Assembly: GCA_050485545.1 (NCBI GenBank)
Contig: JBJHBP010000002.1
Coordinates: 87,857 to 151,856 of the forward strand
DNA from: Gammaproteobacteria bacterium
GTDB taxonomy: Bacteria; Pseudomonadota; Gammaproteobacteria; Steroidobacterales; Rariloculaceae
Direction: 5' to 3'
DNA length: 64,000 bases
Positions 19,312-61,842 of the stretch are shown here, piece by piece. The notes beneath the pieces were generated by a model that was not told where the DNA came from, did no database searches, and worked only from the letters and a program-made list of their open reading frames with translations. How positions within the stretch are numbered: position 1 is the first letter of the stretch; each line of letters begins with the position of its first letter. The position numbers and the translations under genes are program-made.

Positions 19312-19402
19312 CGTCGACGGAATCAAGGCACCGGGACAGGGTGTCCCGCTTGCTCGCTACTCTCGTCAGTTCCCGCCGTCCGCTCACCTTCCCGTAATTG
19401 GG

Positions 19403-19408
19403 TAGAAT
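19403..19408 (+). promoter_or_regulatory. Candidate -10 box TAGAAT upstream of the triple SnoaL gene
   Basis: GGTAGAATGGCC lies 50 nt upstream of the ATG at 19458. No convincing -35 element. Confidence 0.25.
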
Positions 19409-19457
19409 GGCCCCAGACTTGGCCGGTACACGGTCTCATTGCTCCGGGGGCGACATC

Positions 19458-21554
19458 ATGAATTTCTGCATCAAGACCGGTCTGCGTTCTGCTGCCACGC
19501 TGCTACTTGCGTTGACCGCGCTGATGACCGGCCACGTGCTCGCCCAGAGCGATGATGCCGGCAGAATTGCGGCGCTTCAAGCGCGCACCACGGCACTCGC
19601 GGCCGAAGCGCAGCGCATTGAAGACACCATCGCCATCCACAGACTGCAGCGCGCGTACGGTTACTACATCGACAAGGGTTTCTGGGCCGAAGCGGCGGCG
19701 CTGTTTGCCGAAGACGGGACGTTCGAAGTCGGTGTCGACGGGGTCTACCGCGGCAGGGATCGCATCGCGCAGGCGATCGTGCGCTACGGCAAGGGCACCG
19801 AAGGCACCGGCCCGGGACTGCCGTTCGGTCAGCTCAATCAGCGCATGCAGCTGCAGCCGGTGGTGAGCATTGCCGATGACGGCCGCACCGCGCAGGCACG
19901 CTGGCGCGAGTTCGCGCTGCTTGGTGAATATCAGGTGTCCGCGCACTGGGGCGACGCCACGCTGGAGAATGTGTATGTGAAGCAGGATGGCGTCTGGAAG
20001 ATCCAGGCGCTGCGCATGTTCACCAACTTCGTTGCGCCGTACCGGGGCGGCTGGGCGTCTTTGCACACCGTCGATGGCGACTGGCGGACCGATGTCGCCA
20101 GAGACCTGCCACCCGATCAGCCGCCGACACAAACCTACCAGCCGTTCCCGGCGGTGTTCGTCCCGCCGTATCACTATGAGCCCGGCCCGACATCGCTCGC
20201 GCCGGTGCTCACCGCGAATGTCACGCCAGGTTCCGGCGCCATCGGTGCGGTTGAAGCAGCGGCCAATGACGTCGCGGCGCGCCTTGCCGTGCTCGCCTCC
20301 GAACGTGAGATCGAAAATCTTCAGGGTCGCTACGGCTACTACGTCGACAAGGGGCAATGGGACGCGGCCGCCGGCCTGTTCGCCGCCGACGGCACTTACG
20401 AGTTCGGACAAAGCGGCGTCTACGTCGGCCGCGACCGCGTACACGCGGCACTGTCGCTGATGGGCCCGGAAGGCCTGGAACATGGCCAGCTCAACAACTA
20501 TCCGATGCTGCAGCCCATCATCACGGTGGCGCCGGACAATCGCACGGCCACCGCGCGCTGGCGCAGCGACGTGCAGCTCGCGCGCGGCGGAGAAGGCCGC
20601 TGGGGTGCGGGTGTGTACGAGAACGAGTATGTCAATGAAGACGGCGTGTGGCGCATCGCGAAGCTGCATTACTACGTGGTGATGTGGGCGGATTACGATC
20701 AGGGCTGGGTGCAGGGACCGCTGCCGATGGATGGACCGAGCGCCGCGCTGCCGCCGGATGCACCGCCGACCATGGCGTATCAGTCACTACCCAGCGCGGT
20801 TTTCGTGCCTTATCACTTCGAGCATCCGGTGCAGCAGGGCAAGCCTGTGCCGCCCATCGATGTGCCGCAAGGGCAGGGTGGTGCGCTGGCTGCGGTAGCG
20901 GCCGATCTCGCCGACGTCTCCGCGCGCGCATTGCGTCTGGCTGATCTGTCGGCGATCGAGAAGCTGCAGCGCTCCTATGGCTATTACGTGGACCAGGCGC
21001 AATGGCACGATGTGGCCGAGCTGTTCTCCGGCAATGGCACGCTGGAAATCGGCGGGCGCGGCGTCTTTCTCGGCCGCGAGCGGGTGCGCGAGTACATGCT
21101 CACCGCGTTCGGCGAACCGGTGCGCCGCGATGGCCTGATCATCGATCACCAGCAGTTCCAGGGCATCGTCACCGTCAACCCGGACGGGCGCACGGCGTCC
21201 GGCCGCTGGACGGCCTTCGTGATGGGCGCTGGCGGCTGGGGACACTGCTACTACGAAAATGAGTATGTGAAGGTGAACGGCGTGTGGATGATCCGATCGC
21301 TGCGCGGGCCGTTCAACATGTACTCGTCGTACCGTGTCGGCTGGGTGGATGAAACCACGCCCAACACGCGCCCCGAGAGCTTCCTGCCACCACCCGACTT
21401 GCCGCCAACCGAGGTGTACCTGACGTTTCCGAACTACTACGCGCTGCCGTTTCACTATCCGAATCCGGTCACCAACCGCGTGGCGCCGCCGCCGGATCCG
21501 GCGGCCGGTGGCATGGCATTCGGACGGCCCTTGGATGGCGATGGCGGGCGATGA
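19458..21554 (+). CDS. Secreted protein with three tandem SnoaL/NTF2-like modules
   Basis: Signal peptide MNFCIKTGLRSAATLLLALTALMTGHVLAQ. Three collinear units (approx nt 19557-20177, 20238-20819, 20883-21458) each contain LQRxYGYYxDxxxW...LFxxDGTxExG..GVYxGRDR...NEYVxxxGVW and end in LPPDxPPTxxY...P(Y/F)H(Y/F). Confidence 0.75.
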   Translation: MNFCIKTGLRSAATLLLALTALMTGHVLAQSDDAGRIAALQARTTALAAEAQRIEDTIAIHRLQRAYGYYIDKGFWAEAAALFAEDGTFEVGVDGVYRGRDRIAQAIVRYGKGTEGTGPGLPFGQLNQRMQLQPVVSIADDGRTAQARWREFALLGEYQVSAHWGDATLENVYVKQDGVWKIQALRMFTNFVAPYRGGWASLHTVDGDWRTDVARDLPPDQPPTQTYQPFPAVFVPPYHYEPGPTSLAPVLTANVTPGSGAIGAVEAAANDVAARLAVLASEREIENLQGRYGYYVDKGQWDAAAGLFAADGTYEFGQSGVYVGRDRVHAALSLMGPEGLEHGQLNNYPMLQPIITVAPDNRTATARWRSDVQLARGGEGRWGAGVYENEYVNEDGVWRIAKLHYYVVMWADYDQGWVQGPLPMDGPSAALPPDAPPTMAYQSLPSAVFVPYHFEHPVQQGKPVPPIDVPQGQGGALAAVAADLADVSARALRLADLSAIEKLQRSYGYYVDQAQWHDVAELFSGNGTLEIGGRGVFLGRERVREYMLTAFGEPVRRDGLIIDHQQFQGIVTVNPDGRTASGRWTAFVMGAGGWGHCYYENEYVKVNGVWMIRSLRGPFNMYSSYRVGWVDETTPNTRPESFLPPPDLPPTEVYLTFPNYYALPFHYPNPVTNRVAPPPDPAAGGMAFGRPLDGDGGR

Positions 21555-21579: not shown

Positions 21580-22149
21580 TCAGCGACGTCGCCAGATGAC
21601 GCCGACGGACCAGTAGTCGGCCCAACCGCCGCTGCTGCCGGCGCCATCGAGTGAGTTGACCAGCCGTCGCGGCAGGACGTCGAAGTCGGCGCGAACGGCC
21701 ACGTTGCCCGAACCGTACTGAATGCCCGCGCCGATGAATGGATCGGCGAAGCTGTCGCGAATCGCCGGTGCATCGACGGGCGAGACGCGGCTCTGCCAGT
21801 AGCTCACGCCGGCGCGACCGAGCACGTCGACACGCCGCAGCGGCCAGCGGTGCGAGACGGCGGTCGTCAGCGCTGACAGGCTGCCGTTGGCCGAAGCAGT
21901 CTGCACACGGGCATCGCCAAACCAGCTCGCCTCGATCGACAGCCGCTCGCGGAGCCGGTAGCCCGCAATGAGTCGGTAGCCGATGTCCGTGCCGGTGACG
22001 CTGGCACCGCCGCCGCTGAGGTCCAGCGCCGCGCGGTGCATACCGACGCCCGCGTAATAGCGGTCGGGCATTTCCGCGGCAAGCGGTGCGGCGGCCGAAA
22101 GGGCGGCCAGCAGGCCGGTGGCAGTGGCAATGCGTGTGATTCGATTCAT
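21580..22149 (-). CDS. Small outer-membrane beta-barrel (porin-family / OmpW-like) protein
   Basis: Signal peptide MNRITRIATATGLLAALSAAAPLAA, an alternating aromatic/Gly beta-strand pattern (YYAGVGMH, IGYRLIAGYRL, IEASWFG, AGIQYGS, VGVIW). Confidence 0.65.
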   Translation of the reverse strand: MNRITRIATATGLLAALSAAAPLAAEMPDRYYAGVGMHRAALDLSGGGASVTGTDIGYRLIAGYRLRERLSIEASWFGDARVQTASANGSLSALTTAVSHRWPLRRVDVLGRAGVSYWQSRVSPVDAPAIRDSFADPFIGAGIQYGSGNVAVRADFDVLPRRLVNSLDGAGSSGGWADYWSVGVIWRRR

Positions 22150-22268
22150 GGGCAGGACATTACCGCTTGCAGTGAAGCTCAACAGTGCCTGCGTCACGCT
22201 GTTGTGAATTGCCGGCCATCATCCGTCGTCCGTCGCCCATCTGATAACCTGGCGGCGGACGTCCGGAA

Positions 22269-22541
22269 GTGCGGGCGGCACATATCCGCCTGGTGGAAAA
22301 GGATGGCCCGGGCACGGTGCGCAATGGTACGGCGCTCACCGGCACTGCGCATTGGCTGTTCGATCGGGGGCTGATCAGTATCGCCGACGACTACACGATT
22401 CTGCTGTCACCGCATGGCGTGCCGGACGACCTGGACAAGCTCATTCGACCCGACCGTCGACTCATCATTCCGGACAAGGCAGCGCGGCGGCCGCATTCGA
22501 CCTACCTGAAGTGGCACGGGGAAAATCAGTTCAAGAGTTGA
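22269..22541 (+). pseudogene. 5'-truncated HNH nuclease gene fragment (HNH_2-like C-terminal third)
   Basis: ...AAHIRLVEKDGPGTVRNGTALTGTAHWLFDRGLISIADDY... carries the AAHI/NG/H..FD core of HNH nucleases. The frame is closed immediately upstream by TGA TAA (22245-22250), and only about 90 codons remain. Confidence 0.6.
22340..22541. repeat. Direct repeat, left copy (HNH 3' end)
   Basis: Aligns without gaps to 25187-25388 at a constant offset of 2847 bp. The first 120 bp are identical and the last 82 bp carry 8 mismatches. Confidence 0.9.
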
Positions 22542-22588
22542 TGCAGCGCCGGGGTCTTCGACCCTGACTGCGGTTGTTGCTGTCGGCG

Positions 22589-23956
22589 TCAAGCCCTGAC
22601 CCTTCGAATGCCGGATCGGCGAGCCGGCCTGACCGCGCACCAGTCCAGTTTCAGTACGCGCCCCCTGGCCGTGAAGCGGCAGATCCCTGCCGCCACCGCG
22701 AAGACGGCCATCATGACGATGTGTGCCGTCTGCAAAGTGGTACCGAGGGCAGCGATCAAGCCGACTGTCAGGAACCACAGAAACGGTAGCGTGAATGACA
22801 ATGTCAACACGGTCTGTCCAAGACATCGCCACCAGATGACGAACATCGCGCTGAACACCATGCCCACAGCGCAGCCGACGCTGTAGGCAACCAGCAGACC
22901 GGCGTCTGTGTTGGACACCCGCCAGGCGACCAATGCGATGCCGGTGGTAATGCACAGGACGAGCAGTGCGTCCCTATATACCTCCCGCTCCAGCGCCCGC
23001 CATAGGGTCCGCCGGTCACCCGGCGACCTCAGCCACAGTGCCCGAAGCCGCGCTGGCCATTCGGCCATCGTCAGCGCCGGAACCAGAGAGCTGAAAAACA
23101 GCCCGCTGATCAGGAACATTGGGACACTTCCGGCTTCACCGAACGGGTGTGACGATCGCGGCATGGAGGCCGTCCAGAGCGCCCACAATGACGGCAGTCC
23201 CACCACGACGAACAGCAGAGGACCCAGGCGCTGCATCCAGCTGTCACCAGCGCCCCGCAGCAGAGTGCTTTCGGGACGGGAGGGCCTGCCCGGCATCCAG
23301 GGCGCAAACAATTCCATACGCCAGGCACTGACGTTTTCCCCGGTCAGATGTTCCATCCGCTGTAGCGCGGTAGGCGGAGCCAGCGTTTGGCGATGGCGAA
23401 CCTGAAGGAAGAACCAGACCCAGCCGAGCAGAGTTGCCGCTGTCGCGGGCCAGCGAAAATCCGTCATTGGCAGCGGCGCGATATCCAGAAACAGGTAACG
23501 CCACACAACGAACAGCACCAGAAGCTGAAACACAAGCCCCATACGGAAGGTACTCAGCCACTGTATGAGCAAGAGTCCCGCACCGGTCATGACGAATATG
23601 CCAAGACCCTCCGTCATCGCGTGGTTCCAGTCCGGGGTGTCGGCAGCTACGACGAAGTACGTGAAGCGAAGTACGGCGGCGATCAGCGGGATCAGGAACA
23701 ACGCACCGACCGCGCACTGACGGAACTGCGGCACCATCGTAAAGCGCGGGTTCGCACACAGCTGGCGAACGACCGCGGCAGACCACAGCGCCGGCCATAT
23801 CAGAAGGATTCCGGCGAAAGCCCACGGAAGCGGTGCCAGACCCATCAGCGCCGGCACCACGCCGATGGCCAGTAACGAAAGTCCTGGAATGGTGAAAAGC
23901 AGAATCCCATAGTGATAGCTGAACAGGAACCAGAGTATGCGCAGCGTGCGTTTCAT
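22589..23956 (-). CDS. Polytopic membrane protein partnered with the ABC ATPase (non-canonical permease candidate)
   Basis: 455 aa from ATG 23956 (MKRTLRILWFLFSYHYGILLFTIPGLSLLAIGVV...), with many hydrophobic helices. ATGA overlap with the ATPase stop. Noticeably lower GC than its surroundings. Confidence 0.75.
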   Translation of the reverse strand: MKRTLRILWFLFSYHYGILLFTIPGLSLLAIGVVPALMGLAPLPWAFAGILLIWPALWSAAVVRQLCANPRFTMVPQFRQCAVGALFLIPLIAAVLRFTYFVVAADTPDWNHAMTEGLGIFVMTGAGLLLIQWLSTFRMGLVFQLLVLFVVWRYLFLDIAPLPMTDFRWPATAATLLGWVWFFLQVRHRQTLAPPTALQRMEHLTGENVSAWRMELFAPWMPGRPSRPESTLLRGAGDSWMQRLGPLLFVVVGLPSLWALWTASMPRSSHPFGEAGSVPMFLISGLFFSSLVPALTMAEWPARLRALWLRSPGDRRTLWRALEREVYRDALLVLCITTGIALVAWRVSNTDAGLLVAYSVGCAVGMVFSAMFVIWWRCLGQTVLTLSFTLPFLWFLTVGLIAALGTTLQTAHIVMMAVFAVAAGICRFTARGRVLKLDWCAVRPARRSGIRRVRA

Positions 23957-24723
23957 CGGTGCAGCTCCAGAAAGATGTCTTCCAGCGACATTCCGGCGGT
24001 GCCGGCAATCAAGCCCGCCGAGCCGGCAGCGGCGGCACTCGCAATCATGGCGCCGGACTCCTTGATCTCGTCCGTTGACTGATCCACGATGAGACGGCCT
24101 TCCTTGAGTATCCATGCCCGGTTCGCGATCCGTTCCAGATCGCCGACGAGGTGCGTGGAAAACAACATTGTCCGATTGCCGGTGGCGGCCATGCTCACCA
24201 GCTCCTGCAGGAATTTACGGCGCGACAACGGGTCCAGCGACGAGACGGGTTCGTCCAGCACCAGAAACTCCGGTTCATGACCGATTGCAGCGAGAATCGA
24301 CAGCTTCTGACGCTGACCAACCGACAGCGTGGACACGCGCGGCTCGAGTGGGATTGACCATTCGCGAACCAGCCGTGCGACCAGGTCATGATTCCATCGT
24401 GGGTAGAACGTGCTGATCAGATTGAGAAACGTTCGTCCGCTCATCACATCGATCAGGTCGTCCTGCTGCGGTACCAGGCCGATGCGGTGCTTGAGTTTCT
24501 CATCCTGCAATGCGCTCGCGTGCTGGCCAAGGACACGCACGCTGCCTGCGTCGGGAATCGCAAAGCCCAGCGCGGTCTCGATCAATGTGGTCTTGCCTGA
24601 GCCATTCAGACCCAGCAGGCCGACCACATCGCCTGCGCGGACTTCTGCACTGATCTCCTTCAGCACCTCCAGATGCCCGAACCGCTTCACGAGGCCACTG
24701 AGTTGCAGAATCACGTCAGCCAT
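23953..24723 (-). CDS. ABC transporter ATP-binding protein
   Basis: Walker A GLNGSGKTT, Q-loop, signature LSVGQRQKL, Walker B FLVLDEP and H-loop STH. The start overlaps the GntR stop by 8 nt. Confidence 0.92.
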   Translation of the reverse strand: MADVILQLSGLVKRFGHLEVLKEISAEVRAGDVVGLLGLNGSGKTTLIETALGFAIPDAGSVRVLGQHASALQDEKLKHRIGLVPQQDDLIDVMSGRTFLNLISTFYPRWNHDLVARLVREWSIPLEPRVSTLSVGQRQKLSILAAIGHEPEFLVLDEPVSSLDPLSRRKFLQELVSMAATGNRTMLFSTHLVGDLERIANRAWILKEGRLIVDQSTDEIKESGAMIASAAAAGSAGLIAGTAGMSLEDIFLELHR

Positions 24724-25096
24724 CTCTCTTCTCCATTGCCTTGCGAACCGCGGCAACGACATCGCTGGTGTTCAGCTGAAGTTGTTCGGCCGCCGTGACG
24801 ATCGGATCGATCAGTTTCTGAAGCCGCGCAAGGCGCGCGGCCTTGGACTCCCTACCGCCAAACGCAGGCGATACTGTCATCGGCCTGCCACGCTGGCGGA
24901 GCAGGATTCCCTCGGCCTCCAGCAGGCTGTATGCCTTGGAAATCGTCATTGCGTTGACTGCGTGCCGCACCGCGACGTCGCGCACCGACGGCAGTTCGTC
25001 GCCGGGCTTCAACTGATCGCTGGCCACCATCCAGCGCACCTGTTCGATGATCTGCCGATAGATCGGGGTGCCGGACTGGGGATTCAGACTGAACAT
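24716..25096 (-). CDS. GntR-family transcriptional regulator, short YtrA-like subtype
   Basis: 126 aa with an N-terminal wHTH (PIYRQIIEQVRWMVASDQLKPGDELPSVRDVAVRHAVNAMTISKAYSLLEAEGIL) and a short helical C-terminus. First gene of the three-gene operon. Confidence 0.88.
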   Translation of the reverse strand: MFSLNPQSGTPIYRQIIEQVRWMVASDQLKPGDELPSVRDVAVRHAVNAMTISKAYSLLEAEGILLRQRGRPMTVSPAFGGRESKAARLARLQKLIDPIVTAAEQLQLNTSDVVAAVRKAMEKRDG

Positions 25097-25117
25097 CAGC
25101 GCCTTAAGCGTATCCAA

Positions 25118-25141
25118 AGTGTATACTAACAATCATACACT
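25118..25141 (-). promoter_or_regulatory. Perfect inverted repeat AGTGTAT-N10-ATACACT; candidate YtrA-type operator / promoter region
   Basis: 7-bp arms at 25118-25124 and 25135-25141, 22 nt upstream of the GntR start. It sits in an AT-rich patch containing a TAGTAT -10-like hexamer on the minus strand. Confidence 0.4.
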
Positions 25142-25186
25142 AATGCACTTCGAAGGTTGCGGCAAGCACGGCCGTGATGGGTGATA

Positions 25187-25388
25187 CGGCACTGCGCATT
25201 GGCTGTTCGATCGGGGGCTGATCAGTATCGCCGACGACTACACGATTCTGCTGTCACCGCATGGCGTGCCGGACGACCTGGACAAGCTCATTCGACCCGA
25301 CCGTCGGCTCATCATTCCGGGCAATGCGGCGCGGCGGCCGCATTCGACCTACCTGAAGTGGCACAGGGAAAATCAGTTCAAGGCGTGA
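25187..25388. repeat. Direct repeat, right copy (HNH 3' end)
   Basis: 194/202 identity to 22340-22541. It ends at the same in-frame TGA. Confidence 0.9.
25188..25388 (+). pseudogene. 3' fragment of an HNH nuclease gene (no start, preceded by in-frame TGA)
   Basis: Encodes GTAHWLFDRGLISIADDYTILLSPHGVPDDLDKLIRPDRRLIIPGNAARRPHSTYLKWHRENQFKA*. An in-frame TGA lies at 25182-25184. Its last 11 nt overlap the vapC 3' end convergently. Confidence 0.55.
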
Positions 25389-25773
25389 CGGCAGCGGCAA
25401 GATCCGTATGAACGAAGTCATCGCCCTTGAAGAGCAGCGGTTCGTTTCTGGATCTTGCAAGCGCATACGCAAAGCAGTCGCCGTAGTTCAGTCCGGCCGG
25501 ATGACGGCCTTTTCCGTATCGACTGTACGCGCGGCGGGCGACATCGGCCTGGGCGCCATCGACGGCTACGATTTCCGCTTCGGCCTTCGCCAGAAACAGG
25601 TCGAGATCGCGCACACCATCGGGGCCATACCGGCACTTGATGACGATCGAGGCCTCGACAAGCGTGGCGGCACAGACGAGGCGCGACTCCGCGGCCTCAA
25701 TAGCTTCGATGAATCGGCGCGATTCGGGTTCGCCAGCAAGAATTGCGAGCAGAGCTGACGTATCGATCACCAT
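25378..25773 (-). CDS. vapC: PIN-domain ribonuclease toxin VapC
   Basis: MVIDTSALLAIL... (Asp4), ...LVEASIV..., ...NYGDCFAYALA.... 131 aa. ATGA overlap with vapB. Confidence 0.92.
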   Translation of the reverse strand: MVIDTSALLAILAGEPESRRFIEAIEAAESRLVCAATLVEASIVIKCRYGPDGVRDLDLFLAKAEAEIVAVDGAQADVARRAYSRYGKGRHPAGLNYGDCFAYALARSRNEPLLFKGDDFVHTDLAAAVTP

Positions 25774-26027
25774 CAGCGAGGCAGGCCGAGTTCGTCATAG
25801 CCGAGGATGTCGTTGGCGCTGCCCGGGTCCAGGACCGAGAGCGCCGCACAGTGTTGTGCGATTTCTTCCAGTTCATCAGCCAGTCGACGGCCGGCGCGCT
25901 CGCGACGAAGCCGGTCGAGACGGTCCCGGAGCGCCTTGGTGACGGCCTCCGTCTTGGTCTCGCCAGTCTCCCGGGCAAGCGCCGCGGCGAGCTTCTCGGT
26001 TTCCGGGTTGCGTATGTTGAGGGCCAT
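25773..26027 (-). CDS. vapB: VapB-family antitoxin
   Basis: MALNIRNPETEKLAAALARETGETKTEAVTKALRDRLDRL... is a typical VapB leader. 84 aa from ATG 26027. Confidence 0.85.
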   Translation of the reverse strand: MALNIRNPETEKLAAALARETGETKTEAVTKALRDRLDRLRRERAGRRLADELEEIAQHCAALSVLDPGSANDILGYDELGLPR

Positions 26028-26035
26028 TGTGTATA

Positions 26036-26057
26036 CGTGTAGCTTGGTTGCTACACG
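26036..26057 (-). promoter_or_regulatory. Perfect inverted repeat CGTGTAGC-N6-GCTACACG; candidate VapBC operator
   Basis: 8-bp arms starting 9 nt upstream of the vapB start codon. Confidence 0.4.
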
Positions 26058-26344
26058 GTAACGTCGGCGCCCGGTGCTGTCAACGACGAAGGTTCCAAGC
26101 CTCTGCCTGCAATACTCGCCTGCATCCGCTACAGCCCGCGATTGCGGTGATGACTCGATAGGGAATCGTGATGGGTCCCCCGCCTGCCGGCACACGATCG
26201 CCCGGAATCGTACTGATGCGCGGGTACGTCCCCGCGAGTTAACCGTGCACAGTGTCGAGATTCGGAGGTTCCGGTTCCATGCGGGAATCGGCTTACTTTT
26301 TTCGGCGCCTTCACTTGCTGGCGTCCGGAGTTATCATCTTGTCC

Positions 26345-26629
26345 ATGCAGGCCGAATCCCTGGAAGTCCTCGAGAAGGCCGACGTGCCCTCCGTGCAGGC
26401 ACGGGCGATTGTGCGAGCCATCGAAATCGAGATTGCGGGGTCGAAAGATACGCTTGCTACCAGGCACGATCTGCTGCAGATGCGGCAGGATTTGCATCAG
26501 GAACTCGGAGAACTGCGCCATGAGCTGCACAAGGAGCTTGGTACGGTACACCAGGCGATGGCGGAGCTGCGCGGCGAGTTTCGCTCCGAGCTTCACGGCA
26601 TGGCGAGCAGCATCACGAGGCAGATGTAA
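26345..26629 (+). CDS. DUF1640-like coiled-coil protein, terminated by an in-frame TAA before its expected membrane anchor
   Basis: MQAESLEVLEKADVPSVQARAIVRAIEIEIAGSKDTLATRHDLLQMRQDL... heptad-rich. The start is taken at the internal ATG 26345. See 26630-26749. Confidence 0.55.
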   Translation: MQAESLEVLEKADVPSVQARAIVRAIEIEIAGSKDTLATRHDLLQMRQDLHQELGELRHELHKELGTVHQAMAELRGEFRSELHGMASSITRQM

Positions 26630-26749
26630 ATGGCCATGCTCGGCCAGATGGCAGTGCTGCTTGGCATCGCGTACTTTTTTGTGACGCAGGTTATCGGCTG
26701 GGTATCCTGCAGCTCTTCATACTCAAAGTACCGGTTTTCGCAATCATGA
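26630..26749 (+). CDS. 39-codon ORF encoding the missing hydrophobic tail of the DUF1640-like protein (same frame, directly after TAA)
   Basis: MAMLGQMAVLLGIAYFFVTQVIGWV... starts at the codon immediately following the TAA at 26627-26629. Confidence 0.35.
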   Translation: MAMLGQMAVLLGIAYFFVTQVIGWVSCSSSYSKYRFSQS

Positions 26750-27930
26750 GCAGTATCGAATCCTCCCCGTGGCCCCTGGCCTATCGGCCGGCCTCTGCCG
26801 ACAGTACTACCGTGGATACCCCCGCGGCTGCACACACGGTCCGCCTGACCACGCTGGCCCGCGCCCTGACCGGCATGCAGAAGGAAGCTGTCGTCAGCTG
26901 CGAACCCGGCGGGCGTCGCTGGCGCATGGTGTCGGATGAAGGTCCCTATCTGAATGGCACGGATCTCGCGCCGTTTCCACTCGCATTCTTCACGGCCGGT
27001 GTGGCCAACGGGTTTCTGGCGGAGATTGCTGCACTGGCGCGGCAACGTCAGATCATGATCAGCCACATCGAGCTGACGGCGGACAGCTTCTATACGATGC
27101 AGGGTTCGGCCGTGCGCGGTGACATGCTCGGTGGTGCGTTGCCAGTGGAGCTGAGTGTGCGCATACAGGCTGACACCGCTGATGCGGAACTCGATTCGCT
27201 GGTTGCCGACGCGGTGGCGCAGTCACCGGTGGAAGCCTTGTTGCGCGCATCGCTGTGCAGTGAGTTCTCACTGGCGCTGAATGGCGACACCGAGGCTGCG
27301 GGGGACGTCACCCACTGGGACTCGCCGCCTGCATTCGATCTGAGCGATGCGGGTTTCAACGTACTGCAACCGGACGGCGATCCGGCGGTCCCGGAAGACC
27401 TGATCACGAAGCTCGGCAGCAGCGAAACGGTTTTCAACGTCGAAGGTGGTGCCGGCAGCAGCCTTGCGGCCGAGCAGAAACGTACGCTGCACATCCGCGG
27501 CATTGCGACGCTGCGTGAGGATGGCTTGAGTGAGACGCGGGTGCAGCTCTACAAGCCGATCGGAAGCAACTTCCGGTTTCTGTGTGAAATCGATGGTGCG
27601 GATCCGGCAGGCGCACGCGCACCATCGCCACTGGTTTATCTGTCGGCGGGGCTGGCATTCTGCTATCTGACCCAGATCGGTCGCTACGTCGCCATACTCA
27701 AGCATCCTCTGCAGCGCTACGCCATCGGTCAGGTGACACGGTTCGGCCGGGCCGGGCACGAAAATGGGCCGGTGGTGGAACCGGTGCGCACGCATGTGGA
27801 CCTGGTGACCAGCGTCGATGCCGACACCGCGCGCCGCATCGTGGTCATGGGTGAGCGTACCTGTTTTCTTCATGCAGCCGCGCGCACCCCCGTTGCGACG
27901 CGCATTGTCGAATCATCCCTGCAGACGTGA
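26746..27930 (+). CDS. Tandem OsmC/Ohr-like domain protein
   Basis: Two OsmC-like cores (SDEGPYLNGTDLAPFPLAFFTAGVANGF and GARAPSPLVYLSAGLAFCYLTQI), each followed by an alpha/beta repeat. 394 aa. Confidence 0.7.
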   Translation: MSSIESSPWPLAYRPASADSTTVDTPAAAHTVRLTTLARALTGMQKEAVVSCEPGGRRWRMVSDEGPYLNGTDLAPFPLAFFTAGVANGFLAEIAALARQRQIMISHIELTADSFYTMQGSAVRGDMLGGALPVELSVRIQADTADAELDSLVADAVAQSPVEALLRASLCSEFSLALNGDTEAAGDVTHWDSPPAFDLSDAGFNVLQPDGDPAVPEDLITKLGSSETVFNVEGGAGSSLAAEQKRTLHIRGIATLREDGLSETRVQLYKPIGSNFRFLCEIDGADPAGARAPSPLVYLSAGLAFCYLTQIGRYVAILKHPLQRYAIGQVTRFGRAGHENGPVVEPVRTHVDLVTSVDADTARRIVVMGERTCFLHAAARTPVATRIVESSLQT

Positions 27931-28065
27931 CGCTGTAGTCGCAACGCAACCCCCAATTGGGAGTTGTGTGTTCTGTTCCGTGTCGCGAGACTCTGATCAA
28001 CGTGCTGCCGATACCAGTACGAGATCGGGATATTCCGGTGAACCAGCCGCAACGGGACAGGATTC

Positions 28066-29775
28066 ATGGCCGACGCATCGCACGCAGATAAGGATATCCA
28101 CTGCACGAATACACGCGTTGTATTGTCCGCGCTGTGTGTGATGACATTCGCAGCGTTGACCGCATGCAGCAGCGGCAGTGGTAGCGGCAGCGGTGTTGGA
28201 GGCACTTCAAGCTTCACCGTCAGCGCCAGCGCCGGTTCCGGTGGCGGCATCAGTCCCGTCACCGCGACCGTGAATCAGGGTTCGACCGCCAGTTTCACGG
28301 TGACGGCAGACGAGGGCCATAGCGTCCAGAATGTCAGTGGCTGCGGCGGTTCGCTGAGCGGCAGTACGTACACGACCGGCGCGATCACCGCCGCGTGTCA
28401 GGTCACCGCCACGTTCCAGGTCAACAGTTACACGGTGACCGCCAGCGCAGGAGATGGCGGAGGAATCGAGCCCACCAATCTGAGCGTCGAGCATGGAGAG
28501 AGTGCCGATTTCACCGTCACCGCCGCGGACGGCTATGCGGTGTCCACTGTCTCGGGCTGCGACGGCTCACTGTCCGGGGATGTTTACACGACCGGCGCGA
28601 TCACAGCCGACTGCAGCATCGAGGCAACCTTCAGCAGTGCGCTCATCGCTCCGGACACCGTGTCGGCCGCGGCAGGCGATAGCAGCGTCACCCTGACGTG
28701 GTCGGAGGTGCCTGCCGCCACGGGTTACACCGTCTACTGGAGTCAGAATCCGGGTATCGACCCGGCGTTTTCGGCGACGTTCGACGACCTGGTTGCCGGG
28801 GTCGACAGTCCCCACGTTGTGTCCGGACTGAGCAATGGCACGGCCTACTACTTCGTCGTTACTGCGACGCTGGATGGCGATGAAAGCGAGGCGAGCGCCG
28901 AGGTGTCGGCCACACCCGCACCGTTCACGACCTGGCGCGGACCTCTCAATGATACCGGCATCACTCTGTGCGGCGACTACGCTTTCGGCGGCACGGAGAT
29001 GCACAACAATGACGTGGATTGCGCGGTGGTCGGCGCATCGGCCACGCACGCCGGTACCGATGCCGATGGCGACGTGGTGCCCGCTGGCCAGGACGCACAC
29101 TTCGGACGCGACGCGACGCCCGATCTTGTGAAAGTCGGCGGCGGCGCGGCCGGGTTCGACTTCTCCAGAGTCTGCAACAGCGGGCAGGTGGCCGGAGCCG
29201 GCAGTTGCCCCGCCGAACCCGAACAGGGCGATGACCTGAATGAATGGGCGTGCACGCTGGATAACCATACCGGGCTGATGTGGGAGACCAAGCGAGTCGT
29301 GTCCATACATCTTCGCAGCTCAGGCGCTGTGTACAGCTGGTACAGCAGCGCCGAACGCAGCGACGGGACGGCCGGTGAGATGAACGATGGCAACGCCGGC
29401 GTGGCGAACGGCGGCAACTGTTTCAACCAGTATCATCCAGACTCCAACCCCGACGGAAACAACTGCGACACCGCCGGCTATGTCGCCGCGATCAACACAA
29501 CCGGACTGTGCGGCGCCACGGACTGGCGCATGCCAACGCGCACTGAGCTGCAGTCCATCGTGAATGCGGGCACGAACGATCCGACAATCGATACCGATTA
29601 CTTCCCGGGCACGGTGTCAGGATGGTTCTGGACGGGAACGCCGCATGCGGCGGCGGGCGATTCGTCGAGCGCCACCGCGGTGAACTTCGATCAGTCTCAC
29701 TGGGCGACGTCGAGCGTTGGTCAAACGCCCAAGTCCAGCCTGATCCGCGTGCGTCTGGTCCGTGCGCATCAATGA
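28066..29775 (+). CDS. Lipoprotein with two divergent InlB-B-repeat-like domains, an FN3 domain and a C-terminal DUF1566 (Lcl C-terminal) domain
   Basis: Lipobox AALTAC followed by an SGSGSG linker. Duplicated units FTVTADEGHSVQNVSGCGGSLSGSTYTTGAITAACQVTATF and FTVTAADGYAVSTVSGCDGSLSGDVYTTGAITADCSIEATF. FN3-like VTLTWSEVPAATGYTVYWS. DUF1566 motif TDWRMPTRTELQSIV. Confidence 0.8.
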   Translation: MADASHADKDIHCTNTRVVLSALCVMTFAALTACSSGSGSGSGVGGTSSFTVSASAGSGGGISPVTATVNQGSTASFTVTADEGHSVQNVSGCGGSLSGSTYTTGAITAACQVTATFQVNSYTVTASAGDGGGIEPTNLSVEHGESADFTVTAADGYAVSTVSGCDGSLSGDVYTTGAITADCSIEATFSSALIAPDTVSAAAGDSSVTLTWSEVPAATGYTVYWSQNPGIDPAFSATFDDLVAGVDSPHVVSGLSNGTAYYFVVTATLDGDESEASAEVSATPAPFTTWRGPLNDTGITLCGDYAFGGTEMHNNDVDCAVVGASATHAGTDADGDVVPAGQDAHFGRDATPDLVKVGGGAAGFDFSRVCNSGQVAGAGSCPAEPEQGDDLNEWACTLDNHTGLMWETKRVVSIHLRSSGAVYSWYSSAERSDGTAGEMNDGNAGVANGGNCFNQYHPDSNPDGNNCDTAGYVAAINTTGLCGATDWRMPTRTELQSIVNAGTNDPTIDTDYFPGTVSGWFWTGTPHAAAGDSSSATAVNFDQSHWATSSVGQTPKSSLIRVRLVRAHQ

Positions 29776-29804
29776 GCAGATCAGTTGACGGAGATGAATC
29801 CATC

Positions 29805-30392
29805 ATGAAGCGATCAATTACAGTTTCACTGCGTCCTCTGCTATGGAGTATCGGCTGCTGCCTGCTGGTGCCGCTGACAGCCCGTGCGGAGGTGGTCTGC
29901 CGCGACATGGTATTCGGTCAGTCCAGCGAACGCCCGCTGATCCGGGCTTCCACGCCATCGTCGGATTTCGTCATTCACGACGATGGTACGGTAACGCATG
30001 TGCCCAGCGGCCTGATGTGGATGCGATGCATAATCGGCCAGACGTTCGAAGACGGCACCTGCACCGGCAGTGGGGACAACGGGAACTGGCTGGCGATGAT
30101 GACAGCCGCGCAGTCCCTGAATCACGGAGGCGGGTTCGCCGGCCACACCGACTGGCGCGTGCCGAACGTGAAGGAGTTGTCCACAATCGTGGAACACCGC
30201 TGCAATTCGTCGCCGAAGGTCAATCAGCTGGTGTTTCCGGGCATCGCCTCGGGTCCGTTGTGGACGTCGTCAGCGTTTTTCGGCGACGACACCAGAGCGA
30301 TCTCCGTCAACTTCCACTCCACCGGCGCCACCGGCAACACACCCAAGGACGCCTTCGGTCCTGGCCTGCGACTCGTACGTGACGCCCCGTGA
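29805..30392 (+). CDS. Secreted DUF1566 (Lcl C-terminal) domain protein
   Basis: Signal peptide MKRSITVSLRPLLWSIGCCLLVPLTARA, GLMWMRC and TDWRVPNVKELSTIV. Confidence 0.75.
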   Translation: MKRSITVSLRPLLWSIGCCLLVPLTARAEVVCRDMVFGQSSERPLIRASTPSSDFVIHDDGTVTHVPSGLMWMRCIIGQTFEDGTCTGSGDNGNWLAMMTAAQSLNHGGGFAGHTDWRVPNVKELSTIVEHRCNSSPKVNQLVFPGIASGPLWTSSAFFGDDTRAISVNFHSTGATGNTPKDAFGPGLRLVRDAP

Positions 30393-30496
30393 CTTCGCAT
30401 GCGTCAGGCTCGCGCCGTGCGTGCCGAATTCGCAATTCATGCCTCAGTTGCATGCGGGCGGTGTTTCCGGGGACCGTACCCTGTACGCGCCGGACA

Positions 30497-31528
30497 TCAT
30501 GAGGCGAGGCCCGGGTGCTCGTAGGCCTGCGGGTAGGGCATCGGCTTGACCGGCCCCAGCGGTACGACACGGTTCCAGGAGCGCCCGAAGTAGCCCTGCC
30601 GGCAGTGGATCAGCGAGCCGCTTTGCGCGACGCCGGGCAACGCGTACACGCGACACAGCCATCGCCACAGATGCGGGTAGTCGAGAATTCTTGCACCGTT
30701 CAGCTTCATGCGCAGGAAATAGACCGGGTCGTGCCGGTACAGGGTCGGGAACAGGCGCAGGTCTGCTTCGGTGAAGTGCGCGCCGGTGAGAAAAGGCCGC
30801 CCATCGGCGAGACGGATCTCAAGCTGTGCCAGCGACTCGAAGTAGGCTTCAAAAGCCGCCGCATAGACGGACTGATCCGACGAAAACCCGGCCTTGTAGG
30901 CGCCGTTGTTGATGGTCGAATAGATCAGTTCGTTCAGCGCGTCGATTTCGGCTCGCAGGTTTTCATCCTCGGGGTAAAGATCGGGCCGTTCTTCGTCCGC
31001 CACGGGGCTGCCAAGCTCGCTGGCGGCGCTGTTCAGCATGCGAATGATTTCGGCGCTTTCATTGTTGACAATGCGGCCGGCGTGCCTGTCATAGAGAACT
31101 GGCAGTGTCTGTTCATCCGACCCTTCGGCGCCGTAGATCTGCCTGACCAGCCGCAGACTGCGACCCGTTCCGGTCTCGACGGTGCATTCTGGCAGCGGCG
31201 CGCCGGTCAGGGATGAGACGCGGCCCGGATTGAATTCCCACAGGTTCGGTCCCTGCGGGTCATCGTCGCCGGTGCGGTTCGGAAAGGCCACATCCATTGT
31301 GATGCTGTCGTGCAGGACGAGCAGATTGCGCGCCAGCGTGGCGCGATGACACCAGGGGCAGTTGAGCGCGACGTAAAGGTGGTAGCGCCCCGGCTCTGCC
31401 GGGAACTCCCGATCACCGATCGCGTGCCGGAAGCCGCTGACGCCGCGCACGAACTCCCCGCGTGCACGACGGGCGGCGGCATCGGTCTGGTCTTCCTGAA
31501 CGGAAGGTTCGCCTTCGGGTCTGGTCAC
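30497..31528 (-). CDS. yqjG: Glutathionyl-hydroquinone reductase (Xi-class GST, YqjG/ECM4-like)
   Basis: GRYHLYVALNCPWCHRATLARNL active-site motif, length 343 aa, C-terminal GST fold. Confidence 0.88.
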   Translation of the reverse strand: MTRPEGEPSVQEDQTDAAARRARGEFVRGVSGFRHAIGDREFPAEPGRYHLYVALNCPWCHRATLARNLLVLHDSITMDVAFPNRTGDDDPQGPNLWEFNPGRVSSLTGAPLPECTVETGTGRSLRLVRQIYGAEGSDEQTLPVLYDRHAGRIVNNESAEIIRMLNSAASELGSPVADEERPDLYPEDENLRAEIDALNELIYSTINNGAYKAGFSSDQSVYAAAFEAYFESLAQLEIRLADGRPFLTGAHFTEADLRLFPTLYRHDPVYFLRMKLNGARILDYPHLWRWLCRVYALPGVAQSGSLIHCRQGYFGRSWNRVVPLGPVKPMPYPQAYEHPGLAS

Positions 31529-31698
31529 CTTGCTCCCTCAACCTCGCAGACACTGATGCAGGACGATCGGCAATGCAAGTGCCTGCTTGCCGCCAGGGAC
31601 GGGTAGGGGCCATTCACGTCCACCGTCTGGTCATGTGACGTCTCATTGTGGTCTTCTGCTGCTATTGTCGATCGAGAATCCCGATACGGAGACCAGCG

Positions 31699-32097
31699 AT
31701 GGCGACGATCAAGGCGAACAACCCATGGACCTGGCAGGACGCGCTGCACTTCGGTCACGGCGTGGAAGCAAGGGGTGCCGCGCGCGTGCTGTTCTGTGCC
31801 GGCCAGACGTCGGTCGGCCCCGACGGCAGGCTGCTGCACTCCGGTGACATGACAGCGCAGCTCGAACGCGCATTCGACAACCTCGAGGCTGTGCTCACGC
31901 ATGCCGGCTTCACGCTCGCGAATGTCGTGCGGCTGAACTACTACGTGACCGACATGGCAGCTTTCGGCAAGGCACGCGGTGTCATTGCCGAACGTCTCGG
32001 CGCCATGGACGTGAAACCGGCCGGCGTGCTGCTGGGCGTCAGCCGGCTGGCTGATCAGGGTGCGCTGGTCGAGATCGAAGCCACCGCCGTGGCGTAA
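31699..32097 (+). CDS. RidA/YjgF-family protein
   Basis: 132 aa with FCAGQTSVGPDG...QLERAFDNLEAVLTHAGFTLANVVRLNYYVTD...LVEIEATAV, typical of the family. Confidence 0.85.
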   Translation: MATIKANNPWTWQDALHFGHGVEARGAARVLFCAGQTSVGPDGRLLHSGDMTAQLERAFDNLEAVLTHAGFTLANVVRLNYYVTDMAAFGKARGVIAERLGAMDVKPAGVLLGVSRLADQGALVEIEATAVA

Positions 32098-32258
32098 GAC
32101 GCGGCCGGCGCCGGCGCTGTCTCCGGAGCCGTTGTATCTCCTCGCCCATCGCGATTCCGGGAAAGTAAGGATCACGCTCCAGTTCAATCTCCGCCGAGAT
32201 GGCTGCGGACTGCGACTGCGACTGCGGATCGACGGTCGCAATGATCACGTCGCTATTA

Positions 32259-32900
32259 TCAGTCTCCCTGGGTGGCGCCTGTTTGCGGCGGCATGAGCGC
32301 GTCGTCGAGCTGGCTGGCGCGCTGGCGGGCGGGGCGGTCGCTGACGCGCGCCCAGTAAGCCTCGAGCTCCGGCCGCTTCTCCATGAGATTGAACTGCAGG
32401 CCCCAGCTGATGTGCGAACCCACATAGACATCAGCCGCGGAGAAGCGCTCGCCGGCCAGATAAGGACCTGCGCTGACGGCGGCGCAGAGAGTGTCCATCA
32501 CGCTTCCGAAGCTGCCGTAGCCGGCCATCGACTGATTGCGCCGATCCAGCTCGACGCCCAACGAACGGTTGGTCATGGCCGCCTCCACCGGGCCGGCGGC
32601 AAAGAACAGCCAGCGATAGTACGCACCGCGCTCGGCCGGCGGAGGTGCGAGACCGGCCTCGGGGAAGGCGTCGGCCAGATAGGCGCAGATGGCGGCGCAC
32701 TCGGTGACCACCTGGTTGCCGTGGCGCAGAGCCGGCACCTTGCCCATCGGATTCACCGCCAGAAACTCGGGTGACTTCATCGCCGGGCCATACTCGATAT
32801 GCTCGATCTTATAGTCCGCACCCACCTCTTCCAGCATCCACCGCGCGATGCGTCCACGCGACATGGGATTGGTGTACAGGACGAGCTCTGCTGATGTCAT
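32259..32900 (-). CDS. Glutathione S-transferase
   Basis: 213 aa from ATG 32900. N-terminal thioredoxin-like part (LYTNPMSRGRIARWMLEE...NPMGKVPAL...VVTECAAICAYL) plus a helical C-domain. The upstream 156 codons of the ORF are a non-homologous extension. Confidence 0.88.
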   Translation of the reverse strand: MTSAELVLYTNPMSRGRIARWMLEEVGADYKIEHIEYGPAMKSPEFLAVNPMGKVPALRHGNQVVTECAAICAYLADAFPEAGLAPPPAERGAYYRWLFFAAGPVEAAMTNRSLGVELDRRNQSMAGYGSFGSVMDTLCAAVSAGPYLAGERFSAADVYVGSHISWGLQFNLMEKRPELEAYWARVSDRPARQRASQLDDALMPPQTGATQGD

Positions 32901-33013: not shown

Positions 33014-35686
<2,673 letters not shown>

Positions 35687-35781
35687 GAGTCGTCCCTGTG
35701 CCGGATCGCACCGTACTTCCGGTTGCCAATCCCGCATGAATGCTGAATGCTATCCGTGCCCTGATTCCGGGGTGGGTTGCG

Positions 35782-60028: not shown

Positions 60029-60760
60029 ATGCTCAATCGATCTGTTTCCTTGACCGGACGCCTGGTTGGCCTTGTGCTGGCAGGCCAGTTTCTCGCTGCT
60101 GCAGCCAGCGCACAGGGGGACGAAGACGCGGTGTCGGGCCGTGCAACCCTGGGATTCCTGTCGACCACCGGCAACACTGAGAGCACCAATACCAACGCGC
60201 GGCTGCGTCTGCGCTATGTGCCTAATGAGTGGAGTCACGAGTGGGATCTGTCCGCCGTAGGTGCGACGCGCGGGGAGGAAACCACCACCGAGGCCTACAC
60301 CGGCCGCTATGTGGCGCGCCGCGCCTGGGGGCGCAGCTTCATGTTCGCGGCGCTCGACTGGAACAAGAATCGATTCTCGGCCTACCAGCGGCAGCGCTCC
60401 GAATCGCTCGGCTATGGCCACACGGTGGTTGATACCGAAAATCACGAATTCAGCGCCGAGGCCGGTCTGGGTCGACGCTTCGCGCGCCGAATCGACGGCG
60501 CCACCTCGGAAGAAGCGATTGCCCGTGCGTCGCTCGATTACGACTGGACGCTGAATTCCACCACGTCTTTCGCCCAGGAACTGGTCGTGGAATCCGGTTC
60601 CTCCAATACCCGCACGGAATCCGTCTCGGCGCTGCGCGCCAGGCTGTTCAGGGATATCGCGCTGGTCGTCTCGTACCGCCTGCGGCGGGATACGGACGTG
60701 CCGCCCGGGTCGGTCCGCACGGACACTTTCTCGTCAATTTCGCTGGAATACGCGTTCTGA
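60029..60760 (+). CDS. DUF481 (YdiY-like) outer-membrane beta-barrel protein
   Basis: Signal peptide ...LAAAASAQG, GFLSTTGNTESTN, and the terminal SISLEYAF. Confidence 0.75.
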   Translation: MLNRSVSLTGRLVGLVLAGQFLAAAASAQGDEDAVSGRATLGFLSTTGNTESTNTNARLRLRYVPNEWSHEWDLSAVGATRGEETTTEAYTGRYVARRAWGRSFMFAALDWNKNRFSAYQRQRSESLGYGHTVVDTENHEFSAEAGLGRRFARRIDGATSEEAIARASLDYDWTLNSTTSFAQELVVESGSSNTRTESVSALRARLFRDIALVVSYRLRRDTDVPPGSVRTDTFSSISLEYAF

Positions 60761-60886
60761 ACACGGCCCGACATCGATCAGAGGCAAGAATGGCGGAACT
60801 GCCTGTTGCGCCGGGCAGGCCGCATCAGTAGTATTCCGCCTTTCGCCGGGCCGGTGCGGCCCGGGTAATCAGCAGCAGCCACCACG

Positions 60887-61315
60887 ATGAAAACATATTC
60901 CGCAAAGCCGGAGACCGTCCGGCGTGACTGGTACGTCGTCGATGCCACGGGGCAGACGCTTGGCCGACTGGCGACCGAGATCGCCAGCCGTCTGCGCGGC
61001 AAGCACAAGCCCGTGTACACAGCGCATGTCGATACCGGCGACTATATTGTTGTGATCAATGCGGAAAAGATCCGCGTCACGGGTCGCAAGCTCAAGGACA
61101 AGATGTACCACCATCACACCGGGTACATCGGCAATCTGAAGTCCGAGCCGCTGGAAAACCTGCTGGAGCGCGCTCCGGAGCGGGTGCTGGAGCTGGCTGT
61201 GAAGGGCATGCTGCCCCGCAATCCGCTGGGCCGCCAGATGCTCAGGAAGCTGAAGGTCGTCCGTGGCCCATCCCATTCGCATGAGGCGCAGCAGCCTGCG
61301 CCGCTGTCCTTCTGA
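60887..61315 (+). CDS. rplM: 50S ribosomal protein L13
   Basis: [42 protein letters not shown]. Confidence 0.98.
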
Positions 61316-61332
61316 CCCGGAGTTCCGCTGAT

Positions 61333-61725
61333 ATGGCGACGCTTTCCAACTATGGTACGGGCCGGCGCAAGACCTCGGCCGCTCGTGTCTTTCTGAAGCC
61401 CGGCAGCGGTGAAATCCGCATCAACGGCCGGCTTCTGGATGAGTTCTTTGGTCGCAAGACCGCGCGCATGATTGTGCGTCAGCCGCTGGAAGTGGCTGAA
61501 CTGACCGACCGCTTTGATATTCACGTCACGGTCAGGGGTGGTGGCACCACCGGTCAGGCCGGTGCGATCAGGCACGGGATCACGCGAGCGCTGATGGCCT
61601 ACGACGAAACGCTGCGTCAGCCGCTGCGCCGCGCCGGGTTCGTCACCCGCGACGCACGTGAAGTCGAGCGTAAGAAGGTCGGTCTGCGCAAGGCTCGCAG
61701 GGCCACCCAGTTCTCCAAGCGCTGA
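61333..61725 (+). CDS. rpsI: 30S ribosomal protein S9
   Basis: [15 protein letters not shown]...[25 protein letters not shown]. Confidence 0.98.
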
Positions 61726-61768: not shown

Positions 61769-61842
61769 TGGGGGATCGTCTAGAGGCAAGACATCGGACT
61801 CTGACTCCGAGAACCCAGGTTCGAATCCTGGTCCCCCAGCCA
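61769..61842 (+). tRNA. tRNA-Gln (anticodon CUG), CCA encoded
   Basis: Hand-folded cloverleaf: acceptor TGGGGGA/TCCCCCA, D stem GTCT/AGAC, anticodon stem TCGGA/TCCGA with loop CTCTGAC, T arm CCAGG-TTCGAAT-CCTGG, discriminator G plus CCA. Confidence 0.9.

Follow-up and report, generated by a model that had tools for sequence, protein, structure and literature searches.

A regulator-transporter operon between direct repeats of an HNH nuclease pseudogene: a possible homology-anchored insertion in an uncultured gammaproteobacterium

Campbell-type integration of suicide plasmids, and of circular fragments by way of RecA, leaves the homology segment as a direct repeat at each end of the insert, one copy continuous with the target and the other beginning abruptly, and it is reversible by recombination between the two copies. 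Phage 21 and e14 insert in the 3' end of the Escherichia coli icd gene and supply a substitute 3' end, the last ~150-200 nucleotides (nt) of the gene being duplicated with a few substitutions on either side of the insert. At type VI secretion system (T6SS) effector-immunity and rhs loci, homology-facilitated illegitimate recombination is a route put forward for 3' ends that were displaced and for orphan genes (Kirchberger et al. 2017, PMC5361080, citing Jackson et al. 2009, de Vries & Wackernagel 2002 and Meier & Wackernagel 2003). Here we describe a locus with features of all three in a 64,000-nt stretch of DNA (the window; GCA_050485545.1, contig JBJHBP010000002.1, positions 87,857 to 151,856 of the forward strand) from a Gammaproteobacteria bacterium placed by its GTDB lineage in the Steroidobacterales, family Rariloculaceae. 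A three-gene operon coding for a GntR regulator, an ATP-binding cassette (ABC) ATPase and a membrane protein lies there between two copies of a 202-base pair (bp) direct repeat made of the 3' end of an HNH nuclease gene, and we give an even chance to its being a self-contained operon inserted next to or into the decaying HNH gene, with HNH sequence as the anchor. All positions are window coordinates.

The locus resembles a Campbell-type integrant in the arrangement and in the predicted reversibility of its repeats, but it carries no plasmid backbone or replication function, its target is a pseudogene remnant and its repeats are mosaic. As in the displaced 3' ends of rhs, cdiA and T6SS loci, an anchor in the gene, a new 3' end with cargo and an old 3' end orphaned downstream are found in the absence of an integrase. 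However, the cargo is a convergent regulator-transporter operon where those loci have a toxin tip and an immunity gene, the target gene is non-functional, so that no selection for tip switching would operate, and a single event is seen rather than an array. The duplicated gene end recalls e14 and phage 21 in icd, whereas integrase, phage and island genes are absent here and other HNH loci show no recurrence of the arrangement.

YtrA-type GntR regulators accompany ABC modules in Bacillus subtilis (ytrABCDEF) and in Staphylococcus aureus (PmtR-PmtABCD). The operon of the window shares with such modules a short GntR gene (126 amino acids, aa) that opens the operon and has an overlap with the ATPase gene, a palindromic operator and an exporter-type ATPase, but differs from them in its host, an uncultured gammaproteobacterial lineage, and in its single membrane partner of 455 aa, for which no family has been described. 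MbrR-MbrAB of Streptococcus salivarius is another module made of a YtrA-type repressor and an ABC transporter (bioRxiv 10.64898/2026.02.18.706565).

The direct repeat and its HNH gene remnants

The repeat structure consists of the following features.

22240-22541, plus strand: left HNH pseudogene remnant, about codons 204-302 of ~302 (partial HNH_2 Pfam match, tblastn and nucleotide alignment)
22340-22541, plus strand: left repeat copy, made of a core (22340-22459) and a diverged 82-nt tail (22460-22541, variant B-L)
25187-25388, plus strand: right repeat copy, made of a core (25187-25306) and a tail (25307-25388, variant B-R); HNH codons 237-302

The base-by-base alignment of 22340-22541 with 25187-25388 was gap-free at a constant offset of 2847 nt, with 194 of the 202 positions identical, and bore out the description given in an earlier note on this DNA, made from the sequence alone, of 120 identical positions followed by eight mismatches in 82. 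The mismatches (22460, 22474, 22478, 22481, 22518 and 22536-22538; left/right bases A/G four times, G/T, G/A, G/C and T/G) were all located in the tail, which differs by 9.8% (8/82) while the core does not differ at all (0/120). The probability of a mismatch-free run of at least 120 nt arising by chance was 0.005 when eight events were counted and 0.027 when the adjacent triplet was taken as one event; the clustering is non-random, to a moderate degree only. At the variable sites, each copy matches the majority of the homologues at some positions, which indicates two diverged alleles and not one copy that decayed. This mixed agreement and the 9.8% difference between the two tails argue against a single sequence that was duplicated and then mutated.

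Pairwise comparison showed that both flanks are unrelated in sequence between the copies outside the repeat boundaries. Beyond the HNH stop, the only similarity is a GCAGCG hexamer (6-8 nt of possible similarity) that follows a 1-nt indel and by itself lacks significance. No third copy was found in the 64-kb window by tblastn, and no Rfam family matched at E <= 0.1 in the 20-28 kb region that includes the repeat.

Both copies are translated in one HNH frame and terminate at the equivalent TGA, and the onset of the right copy is abrupt, directly after an in-frame TGA and unrelated promoter DNA; both points had been made in the earlier note, as had the overlap of the right copy with vapC (25378-25773, minus strand), with whose 3' end its final 11 nt are shared. 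The further extension of the left copy into HNH coding sequence was also seen, although it is longer than the ~70 bp first given: the nucleotide alignment places the start of HNH homology near 22240, at the L-I-N codons before GGGRPEV, which gives the left copy 100 nt more of HNH sequence (22240-22339). A frameshifting small indel is located at ~22246-22250, in-frame stops sit just upstream of the remnant, and the residual open reading frame (ORF) is of 90 aa (22269-22541). The start of a divergent outer-membrane-protein gene (22152, minus strand) lies less than 100 nt from the start of the left homology.

Searches by tblastn with five full-length relatives matched the left copy from about residue 207 to the end and the right copy from about residue 237 to the end, and detected no HNH sequence farther upstream in any frame. 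The HNH_2 domain (PF13391) is incomplete in the left copy, which matches profile positions 14-65 of 66 and lacks ~200 N-terminal codons, and the right copy has no Pfam match. Both repeat copies are pseudogene fragments, of which the last 99 and 66 codons survive, and no enzyme is left. The resident HNH gene that was earlier proposed as the target is a pseudogene remnant, the left copy being itself truncated and frameshifted.

The asymmetry of the two copies, the left one continuous with HNH sequence and the right one beginning abruptly and running into the vapC flank, gives the locus the topology of a homology-driven insertion: direct repeats of the target gene bracket the insert, one copy is continuous with the upstream target and the other starts abruptly and leads into the resident flank. 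In the insertion that we propose, incoming DNA carrying an HNH 3' segment and the operon as cargo would have recombined with the resident HNH sequence. The old HNH 3' end, now the right copy abutting vapC, would have been pushed downstream, and the upstream HNH remnant would have acquired a new 3' end, the 10% diverged tail of the left copy. The incoming DNA may have been a circular fragment entering by a Campbell-type single crossover, or a linear fragment anchored by homology at one of its ends and joined illegitimately at the other, as in 3'-end displacement. Since no dedicated recombinase is present, host RecA-type recombination would have done the work.

The single-crossover reading of the earlier note agrees with the topology but, in its plain reciprocal form, not with 120 identical nucleotides followed by 10% divergence. 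A plain reciprocal crossover between diverged alleles would spread the differences across the whole repeat, so that conversion, gap repair or an illegitimate junction is needed. The identical core is most readily accounted for by the repair of a gap or the correction of mismatches while the event took place, or by later gene conversion between the repeats; it could also reflect a crossover at the boundary of core and tail together with an illegitimate junction that duplicated resident sequence. A perfect direct repeat of 120 nt is ample for RecA-dependent recombination, and the core would permit rare RecA-dependent loss of 2847 bp or tandem amplification of the operon. We infer the order of events, the recombination route and the competence for excision.

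We then compared the fragments with 80 related loci obtained from a scan of metagenomes with the HNH fragment, with flanks of up to 6 kb per side. The intact HNH ORFs among them are mostly of 290-310 aa. These relatives are at most 76% identical to the fragment of the window and none abuts vapC; 0 of the 80 loci had a further 3' fragment of HNH, a vapBC pair or the cassette near the HNH gene. The C-terminal half of the intact relatives matches NF045808 (phosphorothioated-DNA-binding restriction endonuclease) at 82-85 bits against a cut-off of 180 bits, and the HNH domain of full-length relatives has a weak match (E = 2e-4 to 5e-4) to PDB entries 6yex (HNH endonuclease) and 6ghs (TagI). The relatives have in common with NF045808 and with type IV enzymes that combine a PUA, EVE or SRA domain with HNH (TagI 6ghs, 6yex) a C-terminal HNH_2 domain and a length of ~300 aa. 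The intact family thus looks like a modification-dependent (type IV) restriction nuclease, by a similarity that is below cut-off and confined to the HNH domain.

Many database members of the HNH family are truncated, with lengths of 115-184 aa against ~300 aa and varied N-termini (P0002-P0011, from Xanthomonas, Lysobacter and metagenomes; L117, L118, L157 and L158), and one of them (P0010) has a typical N-terminus of the family fused straight to the C-terminal third. The gene seems to be prone to decay across several lineages. On a metagenomic scaffold (L002, 6979-9935), a 150-aa HNH fragment has as its neighbour a gene for a Y1 (IS200/RAYT-like) transposase, with a SymE toxin gene close by, and this is another neighbourhood of accessory or defence type for the family.

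The operon between the repeats

Exactly one minus-strand operon lies between the copies, with the coordinates and the overlaps of 8 and 4 nt that had been reported for it.

22542-22588, no strand: spacer of 47 nt, from the HNH stop to the convergent stop of the membrane-protein gene
22589-23956, minus strand: polytopic membrane protein, 455 aa, with ~10-11 hydrophobic segments in a hydropathy scan
23953-24723, minus strand: ABC transporter ATPase, 256 aa (PF00005, 85 bits, E = 8.5e-24); 4-nt overlap with the membrane-protein gene
24716-25096, minus strand: putative YtrA-type GntR regulator, 126 aa (PF00392, 54.3 bits, residues 13-75); 8-nt overlap with the ATPase gene
25097-25186, minus strand: putative promoter/operator region of the operon, with an inverted repeat and a TTGCCG -35-like hexamer

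The palindrome of the promoter region, also mentioned in the earlier note, was located upstream of the GntR gene as a perfect inverted repeat, AGTGTAT-N10-ATACACT, at 25118-25141, and the TTGCCG hexamer stands ~25 nt from the boundary of the right repeat. A consensus scan gave no sigma-70 consensus promoter in the upstream region of the operon, so the promoter is a putative one, and a terminator scan gave nothing convincing in the 47-nt spacer. The unique DNA between the repeats extends from ~25 nt upstream of the -35 region to 47 nt past the stop of the operon, and is almost exactly one complete transcription unit.

The C-terminal part of the GntR protein is very short (~50 aa) and has no ligand-binding domain, and its gene shares an operon, headed by a palindrome, with an ABC transporter. 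On its domain, length, operon context and operator, the regulator appears to fit the YtrA subfamily; its similarity to the PmtR and Rv1152 models was sub-threshold. The best NCBIfam similarities of the ATPase were to PmtA, DrrA and other exporter ATPases, all of them under the cut-offs. The similarities to PmtA and PmtR are far below these cut-offs.

No Pfam or NCBIfam family matched the 455-aa membrane protein, and a word-indexed protein search with it returned only the protein itself. An exhaustive HMMER scan yielded 72 representatives at E <= 1e-3, which are 22-44% identical over the matched stretches, 18 of them (30-38% identical) at E <= 1e-30. These results place the protein in a small uncharacterised family; as the polytopic partner of the ATPase it is a candidate permease, with no Pfam or NCBIfam match to a known ABC-2 family. 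An autorepressed exporter or 'extruder' module is the most likely role of the operon, whose transporter function we infer: the GntR protein would bind an operator overlapping its own promoter, and a membrane-active compound would be exported or sensed by the ATPase together with the membrane protein.

The ATPase has many relatives of 254-256 aa with 60-67% identity. We examined the contigs of three of them (P0024, P0026 and P0077) as seven loci (L086-L092), with 6 kb on each side. The three-gene unit is kept in these loci, whose ATPases are 61-67% identical to that of the window, with a GntR gene coding for 126-133 aa, the ATPase gene and a membrane-protein gene coding for 449-457 aa, the last of which is incomplete in L086 and L089, where the contig ends. 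The 8-nt overlap of the GntR and ATPase genes is common to all of them, and the third genes are 28-30% identical to the membrane protein of the window. Upstream of the GntR genes, a TTGC(C/G/A) hexamer comes before a pair of half-sites, GTGTAT/GTGTCT and AATACAC/AATACAG. The presence in relatives of a similar operator motif and -35-like hexamer indicates that the insert brought its own regulatory region. The neighbourhood of these operons differs from that of the window, with DUF2272 and SIMPL genes downstream in most and a sigma-70 gene upstream in some, and no HNH gene was found near any of the seven.

The exact sequences of the membrane protein, the GntR regulator and VapC are on record just in the Logan read set SRR31311414, and no record matched the exact HNH remnant or the outer-membrane protein, the latter with either of two start choices. 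The plasmid database contained no copy of the cassette, its matches being short, distant ones to HNH or ABC proteins, and no relatives of the cassette were found among viral contigs.

Genomic setting of the locus

The repeat structure is located in a segment that varies between strains and that also holds a toxin-antitoxin pair.

25378-25773, minus strand: vapC, PIN-domain toxin (PF01850, E = 8.6e-20)
25773-26015, minus strand: vapB-type antitoxin, Rv0623-like (PF07704, E = 3.8e-25)
21926-32287, no strand: strain-variable segment, from the stop of similarity in L005 on the left to the resumption of synteny in L006 on the right

The genes of the 15.5-35.7 kb region code for RlmJ, an aldehyde dehydrogenase, a protein with three SnoaL domains and an outer-membrane beta-barrel protein, after which come the repeat structure, vapBC, a small ORF, a double OsmC protein, two Lcl_C-domain proteins, GST and LeuRS. 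A PIN-domain toxin gene that shares one base (25773) with a small antitoxin gene identifies vapBC as a type II toxin-antitoxin system. A Pfam scan of the predicted genes of this region found no integrase, transposase or recombinase, and the sole transfer RNA (tRNA) gene of the window is at 61.7 kb (tRNA-Gln, 61769-61842), both in agreement with the earlier note, which had seen no integrase, transposase or att-like tRNA.

We then searched genome contigs with the SnoaL protein of the left flank and obtained 80 loci, the best two of which are L005 and L006. L005 (~89% nucleotide identity in the left flank) is syntenic to 21925, inside the outer-membrane-protein gene, and then fully divergent. L006 (~80% nucleotide identity in the left flank) is similar to 21529 and syntenic again from 32288, LeuRS included, with ~3.2 kb of unrelated DNA where the window has its variable segment. 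The whole segment, with the HNH sequence, the cassette and vapBC, is absent from both. The boundaries given for this segment (~10.7 kb) combine these two different comparisons, and it is flanked by core genes, namely the SnoaL-repeat gene (19398-21554) and the LeuRS-adjacent genes (33014-35737).

The cassette has a guanine-plus-cytosine (GC) content of 61.1% against 64.0% in the window, which places it within the lowest 5% of 2.6-kb windows, and the GC trough runs across vapBC to ~27.7 kb. Lines of 60 nt in the membrane-protein gene have 50-73% GC and average 62.3%, while those of the SnoaL gene average 65.2%, and the tetranucleotide distance of the cassette from the background of the window is ordinary, 28% of windows being farther. 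The contrast of 47-62% with ~66% GC put forward earlier was overstated: the drop is of three points, the trough also covers vapBC and the tetranucleotide distance is normal.

Other features of the window were recorded in passing. The SnoaL-repeat gene codes for a 718-aa protein with three tandem SnoaL_4 domains and contains internal DNA repeats 645 nt apart with ~70% identity (D2, D3 and D6); its homologues are widespread in Steroidobacteraceae-like metagenome-assembled genomes, often in several copies per genome. The double OsmC gene (26746-27930) codes for 394 aa with two OsmC-like domains, a fused duplicate, and is in the low-GC trough with vapBC and the cassette. Two adjacent genes with an Lcl C-terminal domain (28066-30392) code for 569 aa (plus an fn3 domain) and 256 aa; the ORFs as listed overlap by ~150 nt and the start of the second gene is probably farther downstream. 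The lowest-GC stretch of the window (60200-61400, ~58-59% in 2.6-kb windows) is just upstream of tRNA-Gln and may be another acquired segment.

Alternative origins and consequences

Several points weigh against the homology-anchored insertion. An identical core is not predicted by a simple reciprocal crossover, and an extra step of conversion or gap repair has to be assumed. The left HNH copy is truncated and frameshifted, and at least one further deletion is needed to account for the missing 5' two-thirds of the gene. The cassette is barely distinct in composition from the right flank, and the whole of 22-28 kb could have arrived together. No empty site was found in the nearest genomes, L005 and L006, or among the 80 metagenomic HNH loci, and no donor with an HNH gene convergent with the cassette was found in L086-L092, the plasmid database or the viral contigs. 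No circular form was found either, circles being something that only the reads would show. The whole instance is a single locus in one genome, with its phase over the 120-nt core taken from the submitted assembly.

A local origin, in which a segment with the HNH 3' end underwent duplication and later rearrangement or deletion, or two resident HNH paralogues each decayed by deletion, with conversion homogenising the first 120 nt and the operon native to the site, appears unlikely. Deletions are evident at this locus, where the left copy has lost ~200 codons and its frame, and the cassette is close in composition to the right flank and typical of the window in tetranucleotide usage. However, this history takes more steps than an insertion, and the right copy begins exactly where the promoter region of the operon ends. 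De novo duplication followed by mutation does not yield 0/120 against 8/82 differences. The relatives of the operon occupy a different, conserved neighbourhood, and the two nearest genomes are without the operon at this locus.

The absence of integrase and recombinase genes from 15.5-35.7 kb makes it improbable that an integrase-mediated island entered the HNH 3' end with a replacement 3' end and later lost its integrase and the rest, leaving attL- and attR-like repeats. Such an island would produce the same topology, with a duplicated gene 3' end, a few substitutions, an identical stretch on the 5' side and a displaced fragment at the far end, and the variable segment, rich in accessory genes (vapBC and the remnant of a defence gene), is a suitable setting for one. 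The insert would nevertheless have had to be trimmed to one transcription unit, the perfect core of 120 nt is far longer than the cores that integrases need, and the lack of a second 3' fragment at all 80 related HNH loci, in flanks of up to 6 kb per side, indicates that this is not a recurrent att site.

We also considered the assembly itself, which the earlier note had named as a possible source of the duplication. In an independent k=31 assembly of SRR31311414, one contig (L001) is 100% identical to 22488-25216 and another (L085) to 25335-26922. Both start exactly 30 nt before the distinguishing position 22518/25365, and L001 ends 30 nt into the right repeat. The vapB start in the gene call of L085 is 12 nt farther upstream, at 26027. 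This layout shows that both tail variants are present in the reads, each with its own unique flank, and that the junction of the GntR promoter with the start of the repeat is real. A pure assembly duplication of the repeats is unlikely; the concern was answered for the two variants and their flanks, while for the phase across the 120-nt core we depend on the assembly as submitted. The k=31 assembly breaks exactly at the repeats and its graph equally fits an integrated form or an empty site with a circle or array. It is accordingly conceivable, at a low probability, that one HNH remnant joined to vapC and a separate 2847-bp circle or tandem array were threaded together via the core. A 2.85-kb circle with no replication gene is not credible as a stable replicon, however, and a 120-nt repeat is within reach of ordinary 150-nt reads and their pairs, which assemblers normally resolve. 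Even if the phase were wrong, the excised state of the same element would have been seen and not different biology.

We think it very improbable that the 2847-bp unit is a minimal recombinase-free mobile cassette with the ~200-bp fragment of HNH, a widespread defence gene, as a portable homology 'address tag', by which host RecA would integrate it into any genome holding that HNH gene and from which it would be excised as a circle. Two further candidates were rejected: a diversity-generating retroelement, as the mismatches are not adenine-specific and Pfam detected no reverse-transcriptase domain in 15.5-35.7 kb, and an 'orphan tip' or toxin-tip array of a polymorphic toxin, as none of the genes in between is an immunity gene and the full-length family resembles restriction enzymes. 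The structure is probably best seen as the scar of an ordinary recombination event, well preserved within a variable part of the genome.

If the proposed route of homology-anchored insertion is true, the locus would be a natural case of an uncultured gammaproteobacterium gaining a complete, self-regulated transporter operon through host homologous recombination and ~200 bp of shared sequence, without mobile-element machinery, and defence genes in decay would be able to offer landing sites within variable parts of the genome. From its repeats, the locus is predicted to be unstable, prone to deletion or amplification. This biology is expected from known recombination mechanisms, and a new question would arise only if an excised circle or a recurrent use of the HNH tag were demonstrated. 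The cargo is a diverged member of the YtrA-GntR/ABC operons with an uncharacterised membrane partner, and at all the loci that we examined, the small family of this 455-aa partner adjoins an ABC ATPase and a regulator of YtrA type.

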